Shown here piece after piece: positions 19,173 to 31,576 of a stretch of 57,307 nucleotides of DNA. Position 1 is the first letter of the stretch. Each line of letters starts with the position of its first letter. The stretch is from a virus (taxonomy: Duplodnaviria > Caudoviricetes): IMG/VR virus record IMGVR_UViG_3300025133_007637, positions 1-57,307 of that record. One strand, 5' to 3'. A program made the translations under genes and the position numbers. The notes under the pieces were generated by a model. It did no database searches, was not told the origin of the DNA, and saw only the letters and a list, made by a program, of their open reading frames with translations.

Positions 19173-20033
19173 TTGAAAGATGCGGTCGCAAAACTTATTT
19201 TATCAACCATGATGTTCATAACACTTGTTGGATGTTCATCTTGTGTTAACAGTTCTTATCTTTTCGGCCCAGGAGATCTTTTCAGAGATAAAAGGAGATC
19301 TTTTATAAAAATTGATGTTTACAAAAACATTGTTGTTACCAAAACATCAACTGCTCCCGACTATGCTCGATCTGAAGAATATGAACTTGATTTAAGATCG
19401 TCTGCTTCTGGATTTATTGTTGGCCACGACAGAGAAATAACTCTTGTGGCAACATCAGCACATGTTTGCTCTTTTATGGTGGGAAAGCAAATAAATTATT
19501 TTATCCCCGATTTTAATGCACGAGATCCTGACTGGAAGTTTAAGGAAAGGAATTCTTTTATCTTAAGTGATTATAAGGGAAGAACCTATGCGTCTATTCC
19601 GCTCAAATTTGATCTAAAAACTGACATTTGTATTCTAGGATCTGCTAAAATTCCTCTTCCAGAATTAATAATTTCAAAAAATCCACCACTAATTGGTGAG
19701 AAATACTATAACATCGCTGCACCAATGGGCGTTTGGTCTTCAAAAATGATTCCATTATTTGAGGGATTTTATTTGGGACCAATGAAAATGCGAAATGGTA
19801 GAAGAACATCCTATGCCTTTTCAATACCAACAAAAGGAGGATCTTCTGGTTCTCCTATTTTAAACAGTTATGGAGAAGTTGTTGGAGCAACACATTCAGC
19901 CTATAGAGGATTTGAAAATCTTTGTATGGCAACAACAAACACCCAGATCTACATGGCACTTCGATCTGCGATGAATCGACTATTAAAAAATTATAAACAA
20001 TTTAAGCTCATCATTGATCTGATCAATATTTAA
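19173..20033 (+). CDS. Trypsin-like serine protease, predicted lipoprotein
   Basis: Lipobox LVGC; triad motifs TSAHVC, DIC, GGSSGSPI. Only credible plus-strand gene. Confidence 0.8.
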   Translation: MKDAVAKLILSTMMFITLVGCSSCVNSSYLFGPGDLFRDKRRSFIKIDVYKNIVVTKTSTAPDYARSEEYELDLRSSASGFIVGHDREITLVATSAHVCSFMVGKQINYFIPDFNARDPDWKFKERNSFILSDYKGRTYASIPLKFDLKTDICILGSAKIPLPELIISKNPPLIGEKYYNIAAPMGVWSSKMIPLFEGFYLGPMKMRNGRRTSYAFSIPTKGGSSGSPILNSYGEVVGATHSAYRGFENLCMATTNTQIYMALRSAMNRLLKNYKQFKLIIDLINI

Positions 20034-20501
20034 TGGAGGTGGCGGGAATCGAACCCGCGTCCTAAATGTTTTAACAGTTTGTGATATACAAGGTTAAACT
20101 TTAATCTTTCTTTTGGACGAAAGAATTAAGTTCTTCTGCAACTTTAATAACTTGTTCAGAAGTAACAGGCGTCCAATTTTTTTTGCCGCTTGTTTCAAAT
20201 TGCATATGAGCGTTCTGCTCTACAATTCGTTGGGCTTGCTGTAGCAATCCTTGCCTAATTTCGTATCCGTTTCTATTGTTATTCTCTGACATAGTATTTC
20301 TCCTCTCTGTCTGTGTGTTAATTTAAAGCACGGTTTATTGGGTAACAAGGAAAAACCGTAAAAACCCCGCTTTGTTTGCTTACGCAGCCAAAGTTAATGC
20401 AACATTATCGTTAGCAGTTATTTGTTTTAAGCCTTTTAGTGTTTGCTTATACACCCTTGCACAAATCTATCTCGACACCCAGTCGAATCCAGTTCACCCC
20501 C
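20034..20501 (-). ncRNA. ssrA: tmRNA, standard one-piece form, 468 nt, tag ANDNVALTLAA (20380-20415), CCA not encoded
   Basis: 5' GGGGGTGAACTGGATTCGAC; 3' GACGCGGGTTCGATTCCCGCCACCTCCA; acceptor stem GGGGGTG/CACCTCC with G3-U70; helix 2 (TGGGTGT/ACATTTA, TGCAAGG/CCTTGTA); pk1 (GTGT/ACAC, TAAGC/GCTTA); resume context ATAACT-GCT. Confidence 0.95.
20101..20292 (-). CDS. 63-aa protein encoded inside the tmRNA
   Basis: ATG with GAGGAG SD 7 nt upstream; amphipathic helical sequence GYEIRQGLLQQAQ...PVTSEQVIKVAEELNSFV; lies wholly between the tag ORF and the 3' strand of helix 2. Confidence 0.75.
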   Translation of the reverse strand: MSENNNRNGYEIRQGLLQQAQRIVEQNAHMQFETSGKKNWTPVTSEQVIKVAEELNSFVQKKD

Positions 20502-20514
20502 GTAGTGTATAAGT

Positions 20515-20543
20515 ATTATAGCAGATTTTTTTTGGAATGTGAA
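20515..20543 (-). promoter_or_regulatory. sigma70 promoter of ssrA
   Basis: TTCACA-17 nt-TATAAT with extended TGn; -10 lies 13 nt upstream of the mature 5' end. Confidence 0.75.
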
Positions 20544-20552
20544 GAAAAATTA

Positions 20553-20942
20553 TTAGTATCGGCCAGCGGTTGACAGAGGGTCGTCTGGATTCAATTCTGA
20601 CCTCCGTGTAACAGTTCCTTTTCCTGCTAAAGAATCCATTGTAGAGCGAAACACATCACGAACATCAGGATCTTTTGTAATTTCTCGCGGAAGATGACTC
20701 TCCCAGTTTTGTAAAGCTGCTGCAAGGCCAAGCCTCATTTTTGGTGCGTTATTTCCAAGTTCCCATAGCTGATTAAAAATAATCTTCGCACCTTCCACAG
20801 TCATATTTTTTCTTTCGTCGGTTGACATCTTCTGTAATTTATCAACAAAAAGTTCAGCTTCAATTTCCGCATCGCCTTCTTTTAAAATAGTTGAAAGTTC
20901 CTCTTTAATAATTTTCTGAAGTTTGTCTTTTGTAAGTTTCAT
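20553..20942 (-). CDS. Hypothetical protein with MKLTKxxLxxIIKEE N-terminus (possible internal head protein)
   Basis: AGGAG SD; N-terminal motif recalled from large-phage proteins. Confidence 0.65.
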   Translation of the reverse strand: MKLTKDKLQKIIKEELSTILKEGDAEIEAELFVDKLQKMSTDERKNMTVEGAKIIFNQLWELGNNAPKMRLGLAAALQNWESHLPREITKDPDVRDVFRSTMDSLAGKGTVTRRSELNPDDPLSTAGRY

Positions 20943-20992
20943 ATAAATCTCCTGTGATTTACAATAAATAGTTACTTATTAAACAAAAAGAA

Positions 20993-21065
20993 AGCGAATG
21001 ATGGGGTTCGAACCCACAACGTTCAGCTTGGAAGGCTGACACTCTGCCAGTTGAGCTACATTCGC
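20993..21065 (-). tRNA. tRNA-Gly(TCC), CCA not encoded
   Basis: GCGAATG/CATTCGC acceptor stem, anticodon loop CTTCCAA, T-loop GTTCGAAC, U73 discriminator. Confidence 0.95.
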
Positions 21066-21197
21066 AGAAAACTTCGCAAGATTGTTGATTATTCACAACA
21101 ACAACGCTAGACTCAATTCATTAACTTCATTGGAGTCATTGAAGGATAGTTATACTTATAAATCTTTTTTATCTTGCTAAGTTCTAAGCGTTGAATT

Positions 21198-21226
21198 ATA
21201 ATACCTTAATTTCTACTCCTTGTCAA
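21198..21226 (-). promoter_or_regulatory. sigma70 promoter upstream of tRNA-Gly and its 125-nt leader
   Basis: TTGACA-17 nt-TATTAT. Confidence 0.7.
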
Positions 21227-31273: not shown

Positions 31274-31576
31274 TTACCTTTTTATGCTCACAGAGGGACT
31301 TGAACCCCCACGCCTAAGATTAGCAAAAGATTTTAAGTCTTCCGTGTCTACCATTTCCACCATGCGAGCAGGAGTGCAAAACTCTTTTCGACAAGGCGTG
31401 TTGCAAATCGCAAAGCATTTGCCCCATTCCCATTTATGTTTAATAGTTCTTTCACAAATTGCGCTGCACTCGTGGCAACAAACGAAAAACCTTTCATCAC
31501 ACTGAATTTTACCATTTGGTCTTGAACATTCAGAAAAACTAAACATTAAAGAAATCACTAGAATAAGATTTTTCAT
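31274..31576 (-). CDS. Secreted Cys-rich small protein whose reading frame runs through tRNA-Leu
   Basis: Hydrophobic N-terminus, 10 Cys in the first 69 aa, own promoter; no stop before the tRNA. Confidence 0.5.
   Translation of the reverse strand: MKNLILVISLMFSFSECSRPNGKIQCDERFFVCCHECSAICERTIKHKWEWGKCFAICNTPCRKEFCTPARMVEMVDTEDLKSFANLRRGGSSPSVSIKR
31285..31369 (-). tRNA. tRNA-Leu(TAA), CCA not encoded
   Basis: GCTCGCA/TGTGAGC acceptor stem, TGGTAGACAC D-arm, anticodon loop CTTAAAA, long variable arm, GTTCAAGTC T-loop, A73. Confidence 0.92.

Follow-up and report, generated by a model that had tools for sequence, protein, structure and literature searches.

Comparative evidence for a small protein gene nested in the body of a one-piece phage tmRNA gene

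The window analyzed here is a DNA stretch of 57,307 nt from an uncultivated marine phage, the IMG/VR virus record IMGVR_UViG_3300025133_007637 at positions 1 to 57,307. On its minus strand, at 20034-20501, lies a gene for transfer-messenger RNA (tmRNA), and within the body of this gene, at 20101-20292 on the same strand, lies a 63-codon open reading frame (ORF), stop codon included. We consider it highly probable that the ORF is a protein cassette nested in the linker between pseudoknot 2 (pk2) and the 3' strand of helix 2 of a minimal, one-piece phage tmRNA. An earlier reading of the letters alone (the first-pass annotation) had described a complete gene with its own ribosome-binding site (GAGGAG, 7 nt, ATG; 20292-20101) inside a tmRNA gene, and the comparisons presented below bear this out, as the protein and the tmRNA are both under purifying selection. 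Features of the locus are on the minus strand unless stated otherwise.

The ORF opens with an ATG at 20292, 7 nt 3' of a GAGGAG Shine-Dalgarno (SD) sequence, and closes with a TAA at 20103-20101, which a linker of 7 nt (20094-20100) separates from the CCUUG of the 3' strand of helix 2. The leader of the cassette (20293-20318) comprises a CA-rich stretch, the SD and the 7-nt spacer. GGAG(G), ATG and TAA are invariant in all 11 of the full tmRNAs aligned, and of the 28 distinct ORF-bearing tmRNAs caught by an SD pattern, 27 have 7 nt between the stop codon and CCUUG and one has 8 nt. A protein search returned 46 clusters in which the frame is open, at 63-98% identity and nearly all of 59-66 aa; their alignment contains in-frame indels and conservative replacements. 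In a codon alignment of 13 nested copies, the ratio of non-synonymous to synonymous substitution rates (dN/dS) was 0-0.15 among the close relatives (group A) and 0.15-0.27 between these and another group of nested copies (group B), and the variable columns were distributed over codon positions 1, 2 and 3 as 7/4/22 (group A) and 15/11/30 (group B). All 12 differences between the window and one relative (contig L002; relatives are given by L numbers) are synonymous, and none is non-synonymous. The indels of the ORF in the 11 full tmRNAs (+6, -3 and +18 nt) all keep the frame. Stop codons and frameshifts, which the first-pass annotation had said would speak against a gene, are absent from the relatives, and no pairing of the kind expected of pk3 or pk4 is supported across the segment. 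Together, these comparisons show that the ORF is a real gene under purifying selection.

The RNA that surrounds the ORF has the core parts of a tmRNA in standard order, as had been noted at first sight. Rfam model RF00023 matches 20031-20501 from end to end (model positions 1-374; 108.8 bits against a gathering score of 47; E 1e-41), and ten ORF-bearing relatives score 79-113 bits on the same model. The first-pass length of 468 nt (20034-20501) holds. The check that had been proposed for the boundaries succeeded in part: the RF00023 match spans the full model, but ARAGORN did not call the copy in the window. It did call seven ORF-bearing relatives (L216, L217, L220, L223, L227, L228 and L271), as well as five relatives devoid of the ORF, the latter as ordinary tmRNAs with the tags ANDNVALTLAA or ANDNVALSLAA. 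A circularly permuted form of the gene (RF04321 / RF01849) was rejected, the gene order being standard and the acceptor piece not lying upstream of the coding piece; a match to RF04321 at 20380-20615 (47.1 bits) is spurious, as it covers the 5' half alone and has 41 inserted nucleotides where the T-arm should be.

Read from its 5' end, the RNA begins with the 5' strand of the acceptor stem, GGGGGUG (20495-20501), which forms 7 pairs and includes G3.U70; this G.U (columns 3/536) is found in 11 of the 11 aligned tmRNAs, and a U-A to C-G double change occurs at columns 6/533. There follow the 5' strand of helix 2 (20455-20482), which pairs with 20062-20093, and pk1 (20428-20454), read from the sequence and the alignment as GUGU/ACAC interleaved with UAAGC/GCUUA. 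The two interleaved stems of pk1 can be drawn, and the region is near-invariant, hence covariation speaks neither for nor against them. The tag frame (20380-20415, from the sequence and Rfam) consists of the resume codon GCU, the tag ANDNVALTLAA and the stop codon UAA, the last contained in the hairpin of helix 5 (20370-20393; columns 110-133, 8 pairs). The final structured element ahead of the cassette is pk2 (20329-20368), formed by GGGU/ACCC and ACGGUUU/AAACCGU, and present in the ORF-less relatives too. Its second stem is kept in all relatives and, as we read the alignment, has a compensatory variant in L017; its first stem is weakly supported. A pk2-like element had been predicted from the start, and its ACGGUUU/AAACCGU stem survives, but the AAAGC/GCUUU stem proposed with it overlaps helix 5 and is missing in L290 and L303. 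Beyond the cassette come the 3' strand of helix 2 (20062-20093; RNAalifold alignment), which begins with CCUUG, the T-arm (20042-20058; GCGGG UUCGAUU CCCGC) and, at 20034-20041, the 3' strand of the acceptor stem with the discriminator A. CCA is not encoded; UUA comes after the discriminator.

Selection on the RNA itself was assessed in an alignment of 11 full ORF-bearing tmRNAs. In the T-arm, three of the five pairs show double compensatory changes, each in 3-4 of the 11 sequences, and in helix 2 a U-A to A-U double change (columns 21/509) is found in four of them. Among 33 distinct full-length tmRNA sequences (29 ORF-bearing and 4 ORF-less; 28 of the former were caught by the SD pattern, and L247, with a complete 63-aa ORF, was added from the classification of loci), the tag is intact in every one. 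It reads ANDNVALTLAA in 25, and the remaining tags are five conservative variants: ANDNVALSLAA, ANDNVAISLAA, ANDNVAITLAA, ANDNVALPMAA and ANNDVALPLAA. The resume codon varies synonymously between GCU and GCA. Between phages the arms of the tmRNA are 94-99% identical, and the flanking proteins 58-80%; the arms are the most conserved part of the neighbourhood. The 5' arm of the window is 94-98% identical to those of L019, L015 and L016, whose ORFs have 42-49% identity in protein; for L019, the figures are 96.6% for the arm and 42% (tblastn) for the protein. This pattern shows that the tmRNA has been under purifying selection after acquisition of the ORF.

We used an exact 28-nt pk1 core as a marker of the lineage when scanning viral contigs, and it was found in 22 of them. 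In 14, the tmRNA measures 463-528 nt and holds a complete ORF; in five (L290, L293, L298, L299 and L303), it measures 243-253 nt and has no ORF; in three, the tmRNA is cut by the ends of the contig. In an alignment of long and short forms, collinearity of the arms extends as far as the end of pk2 and resumes at UUUAACCUUG, with which the 3' strand of helix 2 begins. Where the long forms hold the CA-rich leader, the SD, the ORF and its stop codon (about 220 nt), the short forms have a linker of 8-17 nt of unrelated sequence. Pk3 and pk4 are absent from all the long and short forms aligned, the ORF-less form consisting of pk1 and pk2. The idea that the ORF replaces pk3 and pk4, as first proposed, is not borne out, the closest ORF-less relatives being themselves without them; rather, the alignment indicates that the ORF is an optional cassette in the single-stranded linker from pk2 to helix 2 of a minimal, two-pseudoknot tmRNA. 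The gene order is common to both forms: orf302, orf142, orf124, in some cases tRNA-Gly, the tmRNA, a convergent trypsin-like protease, and PhoH. By identity of orf124, the ORF-less L290 and L299 fall with group-A phages (about 74-77%), and L293 and L298 with group-B phages (about 60%). Because short forms occur in both sublineages, the presence or absence of the cassette must have changed more than once.

Two further observations concern the same region. An extra insertion of about 49 nt lies between pk2 and the CA-rich leader in L015 (about 1425-1475), as also in L262, L263, L292 and L306, giving a tmRNA of 528 nt; the linker from pk2 to helix 2 accepts further sequence. In L015 there is also, at 2246-2265, about 470 nt downstream of the tmRNA, an exact 20-nt copy of the 3' end of the tmRNA (3' strand of the T-arm and acceptor strand), which looks like a duplicate of an attachment site or a scar of recombination. 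When the ORF-less contigs were searched for the gene outside the tmRNA, a single weak match was obtained, in L303 (1135-1356, minus strand; E 6.6e-4, 30% identity). It corresponds to a long-form member of the family, encoded on the opposite strand about 900 nt from the ORF-less tmRNA. In phages with an ORF-less tmRNA, the gene may have another location.

Nesting is recurrent among the relatives of the protein. A protein profile gathered 80 metagenome loci, which were sorted by RNA context: both arms of a tmRNA were found at 35, and one arm at 8, where the other side lay off the contig; at no locus was the second arm missing where this could be judged. A tRNA gene lay within 150 nt, with no tmRNA, at 27 loci, and neither RNA was present at 7 with enough flank to judge and at 3 with a short flank. 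The 43 tmRNA-flanked ORFs are complete (39) or cut by contig ends (4), and none is broken; the 3' arm starts directly after the stop codon in 36 of 38. A profile scan of viral contigs gave 164 relatives, so that the small phage family suggested by the first-pass annotation was correctly named and understated. Most of the best 80 of the 164, which were kept, are free-standing proteins of 88-105 aa encoded outside tmRNAs. The family is marked by the N-terminal motif NxNGYEIRxxxLxxA and the C-terminal motif AExxYxFV. The proposal that homologs would also be found inside tmRNAs, with dN/dS below 1 and a conserved SD, stood in part: dN/dS is below 1, the SD is invariant (11 of 11) and 46 protein clusters exist, but many members of the family lie outside tmRNAs. 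Rfam (40 loci) and ARAGORN (60 loci, with nothing at 53) detected no tmRNA or tRNA near most relatives, and no tmRNA remnants were found around the non-nested homologs.

Stable-RNA contexts hold the short forms of the protein (58-70 aa). A 60-aa type is found beside arrays of tRNA-Leu, tRNA-Asn and tRNA-Thr, or free, and a 67-aa type between tRNA-Thr and tRNA-Tyr, tRNA-Leu or tRNA-Lys, with spacers of about 40-50 nt; homologs without a surrounding tmRNA have 30-60% identity. A CA-rich leader followed by GGAG precedes nearly all members of the family (L002-L089), the free-standing ones included, and looks, from its conservation, like a translation-enhancer-like element that belongs to the protein family. 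In the window, a CA repeat (ACACACA...; 20306-20318) stands directly 5' of GGAG. A maximum-likelihood tree was built from 77 rows, namely all 65 distinct forms of up to 80 aa and, from the 54 longer ones, the first 12, on 69 alignment columns, so that its deep branches are weak. In this tree the nested ORFs form two groups, and group B is sister (98/94) to the 67-aa type of the tRNA arrays, not to group A. The nested label requires at least two changes, and the nested ORFs were united as one group in none of 200 bootstrap trees. The tmRNA arms of groups A and B, for their part, are 94-97% identical. Two non-sister ORF lineages thus occupy the same site of the tmRNA; either two separate fillings of the site took place, or recombination between conserved ends exchanged one cassette for another.

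A sigma-70-type promoter precedes the tmRNA (20515-20543; TTCACA, a 17-nt spacer with TG, TATAAT), with 11 of 12 matches to the consensus. It is the best of six sites in 19800-21200, and its -10 hexamer ends 13 nt before the 5' end of the tmRNA. A TATAAT-like -10 element is found within 30 nt upstream in 22 of the 30 distinct relatives in which this could be judged. The sole promoter-like site near the ORF (9 of 12 matches) cannot supply the SD, because its -10 hexamer falls between the SD and the ATG. By sequence, there is no usable promoter between that of the tmRNA and the ORF.

On these grounds, we propose that the nested gene would be transcribed from the strong promoter of the tmRNA, as part of the tmRNA precursor. 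The ORF would be translated by ordinary SD-led initiation rather than by trans-translation: 87 nt, with helix 5 and pk2, separate the stop codon of the tag from the AUG of the ORF, and given this gap and a strong SD of its own, independent initiation is a simpler reading than the re-initiation after tagging that had first been suggested as possible. The tmRNA would still function with the SmpB of the host, because the cassette leaves the tRNA-like domain (TLD), helix 2, pk1, the tag, helix 5 and pk2 intact and the ORF-less relatives tolerate any 8-17 nt at the site. As part of a stable RNA, the message would be highly expressed early on and have its ends protected, in parallel with the closest homologs, which lie about 40-50 nt from flanking tRNAs and must use stable-RNA precursors.

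Whether the mature, charged tmRNA keeps the ORF and is a true tm-mRNA is a separate matter, on which we lean slightly to the side of doubt. It is also possible, and we suggest it tentatively, that the mature, CCA-tailed, alanine-charged RNA of 468 nt is both a working tmRNA and a translated mRNA, with the roles of switch and landing pad. In such a closed ring, both ends of the message would be locked in the SmpB-bound TLD, which would make for a very stable and abundant early message. On completing the ORF, ribosomes would melt helix 2 at its top, 7 nt downstream. One molecule could then not serve ORF translation and ribosome rescue at the same time, which would provide a built-in switch between expression of the cargo and rescue. 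Stable-RNA genes would then serve this protein family generally, both as a landing pad and as a platform for expression, because two lineages filled the site and the gene otherwise resides in tRNA arrays.

A variant of nesting in which the mature RNA is not bifunctional deserves to be taken seriously, although we would not call it probable. Here, the cassette would be nicked or cut after transcription to give a two-piece tmRNA and a free short mRNA; in detail, cuts of the RNase E or RNase III type in the CA/AU-rich flanks would leave a 5' piece that extends to pk2 and a 3' piece with helix 2 and the T-arm, the two remaining joined through pairing in helix 2 and the acceptor stem. Natural two-piece tmRNAs joined by base pairing do function, according to excerpts of PMC11915505; the insertion site is single-stranded, with A/U- and CA-rich flanks; and the homologs in tRNA arrays must likewise be freed from stable-RNA precursors. 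No conserved long stem that could serve as an RNase III site flanks the cassette, however. The RNA libraries speak on both sides. Six RNA runs contain 7-13% of the words of the locus, and assembled contigs from four runs of three studies were compared. They cover the 5' part of the tmRNA at a depth of 4-29. A 185-nt contig of a single sample (runs X17 and X18) runs exactly from the 5' end of the tmRNA to just past pk2, as cleavage would predict, but it ends inside the CA repeat, a usual break point of assemblies. A 436-nt contig (run X16) continues from the 5' part to the end of the ORF: it matches 20307-20492, rejoins at 20112, and has about 211 letters not matched to the window, which may leave room for a diverged ORF like those of group B. 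Short contigs match 20034-20165, and the contigs of the four runs do not cover 20166-20285. A joint from 20062 to 20482 in run X15 was set aside, one of its sides measuring just 21 nt and probably belonging to the tmRNA of another organism.

It is unlikely that the ORF-bearing tmRNA is defunct in trans-translation and was captured as a promoter and stabilizing scaffold, or as a decoy for SmpB, its conservation then being due to a recent origin or to the new role. The abnormal T-loops of two relatives, described below, would fit this explanation, and the arms are so alike between the two forms that part of their conservation could reflect recency; moreover, a TLD-only phage tmRNA that inhibits the tmRNA of the host is on record (excerpts of PMC4131195 and PMC11915505). 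Yet compensatory double changes occur in the T-arm and helix 2 within the ORF-bearing set itself, and none of the 29 distinct ORF-bearing sequences has lost the tag frame, in which the changes are conservative or synonymous. The arms remain at 94-99% identity where the flanking proteins are down to 58-80%, and the tag, helix 5, pk1 and pk2 would be needless for a scaffold or a decoy.

We regard it as very improbable that the cassette is a mobile or intron-like intervening sequence, removed by splicing with ligation of the exons. The cassette is indeed optional among close relatives, with clean junctions, and protein-coding sequence lies physically inside the intron-bearing tmRNA genes as it does here. 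In the excerpts of PMC11915505, homing-endonuclease genes (LAGLIDADG, in some intron-bearing tmRNA genes) are reported in the introns of tmRNA genes, and only in those of the T-loop. Those ORFs reside in self-splicing group I introns and are removed with them, whereas in the window no intron was found and the site is the linker, not the T-loop, which is intact (UUCGAUU). Rfam matches at the locus are confined to tmRNA, tRNA and tmRNA_permuted (gathering score, and E ≤ 0.01 over 20000-21100), the tmRNA_intron model not being part of Rfam (excerpts of PMC11915505). Furthermore, the segment is nearly all ORF, with little supported structure, and the 63-aa protein matches neither endonucleases nor another family and belongs to a family that is encoded by ordinary genes outside tmRNAs. 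Finally, a chance frame over degenerate pk3/pk4 structure, or an assembly chimera, can hardly be credited: the 237-nt cassette region with both flanks (20094-20330) does fold better than shuffled sequences (z -2.97) and Rfam forces a pk4-like hairpin on 20141-20178, but RNAalifold finds just a few helices of 2-4 bp within the ORF, the pk4-like hairpin is lost in group B, and the site is empty in the ORF-less relatives, while a dN/dS of 0-0.27, the dominance of third-position variation, in-frame indels, an invariant SD and start codon, and tmRNA-free homologs at 30-60% identity refute chance, and 33 distinct sequences from many samples, together with 14 marine DNA runs of 13 studies that contain 31-70% of the words of the locus, speak against a chimera.

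Several points weigh against the reading that we prefer, a gene nested in a tmRNA that still functions. Two relatives, L002 and L006, have an aberrant 8-nt T-loop, AGUCGGUG, instead of UUCGAUU (Rfam 79 and 86 bits), and could be decaying copies or represent a variant T-loop; these loops are located at about 3230-3250 of L002 and 2765-2785 of L006. The metagenome and viral sets overlap in contigs, so that counts of loci are not independent and the non-redundant figure is that of the 33 distinct tmRNAs. The RNA data are assembled contigs of low depth (4-29), which carry no information on ends, strand or level and may derive from DNA. A helix that would close the cassette, GCUUUAA/UUAAAGU, would preserve the geometry of a ring, but its 86.7% of paired cells was equalled by 201 of 500 shuffles. 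Termination 7 nt from helix 2 may melt part of that helix, such that translation and tmRNA function would interfere with each other. No SmpB gene was found in the window, a record estimated to be about 32% complete, and the exact tag ANDNVALTLAA had no match among 185,579 bacterial and archaeal species genomes, so that no host is pinned down.

Leads to the function of the protein are few. The AlphaFold (AF2) model of the 63-aa protein is a two-helix hairpin (helices 6-35 and 45-61; predicted local distance difference test score, pLDDT, 78); the model of a long form has a pLDDT of 63.5. Pfam and PHROGs gave nothing above threshold for the window protein and seven homologs, the ESM Atlas returned only viral clusters of 'hypothetical protein', and Foldseek found no match to the 63-aa model at E ≤ 0.001. 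With VIA-align, the best Z was 6.2 and all matches were generic helical hairpins, and a profile of 38 members compared with all PDB chains had as its best match a designed helical barrel (E 0.019). The family PF24182 (G1RFP, gene 1 ring-forming protein) was considered and rejected: three of seven long-form members reach 14.2-15.3 bits over 13 residues against a cut-off of 22.6, and the window protein has no match. According to excerpts of PMC9004378, the Melnitz paper, a two-piece ssrA lies upstream of a 'transcription coactivator', which led us to consider the late-transcription coactivator gp33 of T4, a protein with a structure in the PDB. It did not appear among the nine PDB-profile matches at E ≤ 10, or with Foldseek or VIA-align, searches that a short, divergent helical protein could escape.

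The neighbours of the free-standing homologs are varied (hydrolase, desaturase, acetyltransferase, DUF1127 and virion proteins) and give no functional hint. The sole functional clue is the residence of the gene in tRNA and tmRNA genes, and a role tied to the tRNA/tmRNA translation module of the phage is a conjecture that we regard as doubtful. Action on SmpB, the ribosome or Clp proteases, which the first-pass annotation had thought possible, is likewise conjectural. L035 and L037 carry a permuted, alpha-type tmRNA with the tag ANDNYAPEMALAA on both (Rfam 140.6 bits on L035), which is followed by a 120-aa homolog that starts 74 nt after the stop codon of this tag, with the same junction of CA-rich leader and SD. 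The permuted tmRNA and the ORF adjoin in three of 24 contigs with that tag (L312, L322 and L332), all of the same sequence and so a single lineage; this adjacency weakly supports a functional tie.

The window has a G+C content of about 36% and encodes, among others, PhoH, a PD-(D/E)XK nuclease, ORFs of the size of glycosyltransferases and two tRNAs. The gene for tRNA-Gly(UCC) (20993-21065) lies about 490 nt upstream of the tmRNA, a distance that is only about 45 nt in several relatives; that for tRNA-Leu(UAA) (31284-31370) is more distant. The tmRNA belongs to a small stable-RNA module of the phage. Convergent with it, at 19173-20033 on the plus strand, is a gene for a trypsin-like peptidase of 286 aa (Pfam Trypsin_2, E 2e-11) with a lipoprotein-like N-terminus, the stop codon of which overlaps the 3' end of the tmRNA by 3 nt. 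The peptidase (67-72% identity) adjoins the tmRNA in ORF-bearing and ORF-less relatives alike, and a protease next to an RNA that tags proteins for degradation may be more than coincidence. Cultured phage records in INPHARED contain no match for the DNA of the locus, the 63-aa protein or three of its homologs. The looser tag pattern ANDNxALxLAA matches mostly alphaproteobacteria (Sphingomonadales) and indicates no specific host. The tmRNAs of these bacteria are two-piece, whereas that of the window is one-piece. A 're-permuted' mitochondrial tmRNA is on record (excerpts of PMC11915505), and an origin of the window tmRNA by re-permutation is conceivable; a relic acceptor piece upstream of the tmRNA was rejected, the Rfam match to the permuted form on which it rested being the spurious one.

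How does this gene compare with systems already described? With the standard tmRNA (RF00023) it shares the gene order, the alanine-type acceptor stem with G3.U70, the T-arm, helix 2, pk1, the resume codon, a tag ending in LAA and helix 5. It has two pseudoknots where four are typical (excerpts of PMC11915505), and it adds an SD-led cassette of 220 nt in the linker from pk2 to helix 2, reaching 468 nt as against 243-253 nt in the ORF-less form. Circularly permuted, two-piece tmRNA genes also contain sequence outside the canonical RNA, and in one bacterial example a tRNA-Ala lies within the intervening sequence (excerpts of PMC11915505); the gene in the window is not itself permuted. Protein genes are also known in tRNA operons, as are E. 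coli tufB, behind thrU-tyrU-glyT-thrT, and small ORFs in the tRNA region of T4. In these, too, the mRNA comes from a stable-RNA precursor, and the closest non-nested homologs of our ORF sit between tRNA genes; but there the ORF lies between RNA genes, and in the window it lies inside the body of one. Dual-function bacterial small RNAs that encode a small protein, such as SgrS/SgrT and RNAIII/hld, offer another likeness, in that one transcript would combine a structured, functional RNA with an independently translated small ORF. They are base-pairing regulators, whereas the RNA of the window is a tRNA-like housekeeping RNA that enters the ribosome; the small proteins described in the abstract of the review PMC12310071 have roughly 50 aa or less, and the ORF here has 63 codons. 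Excerpts of PMC11915505, a tmRNA database paper of 2025, describe tmRNA genes in three forms, standard, permuted and intron-bearing, viruses having been surveyed from RefSeq only, and among the ten phage tmRNAs catalogued in the excerpts of PMC4131195 none is described as oversize. In keeping with the first-pass remark that no described tmRNA with an embedded, independent coding sequence was known to its author, the excerpts of the literature searched mention no tmRNA whose body contains a protein gene.

A nested gene in the body of a standard tmRNA, outside an intron, is a possible fourth form of tmRNA gene. Other tmRNA lineages may harbour comparable genes that have escaped notice, because gene callers mark the ORF without the surrounding RNA and ARAGORN missed the copy in the window. 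The existence of syntenic alleles with no cassette, with cassette A and with cassette B amounts to a natural experiment, and it bears on the old question of how much RNA, and of what kind, the arc from pk2 to pk4 needs; judging from the evidence of selection, the tmRNA of this lineage would seem to work whether that arc contains about 10 nt or some 220 nt of unstructured coding RNA. A mature RNA that retains the ORF would be the first stable, ribosome-entering RNA to double as a conventional mRNA.

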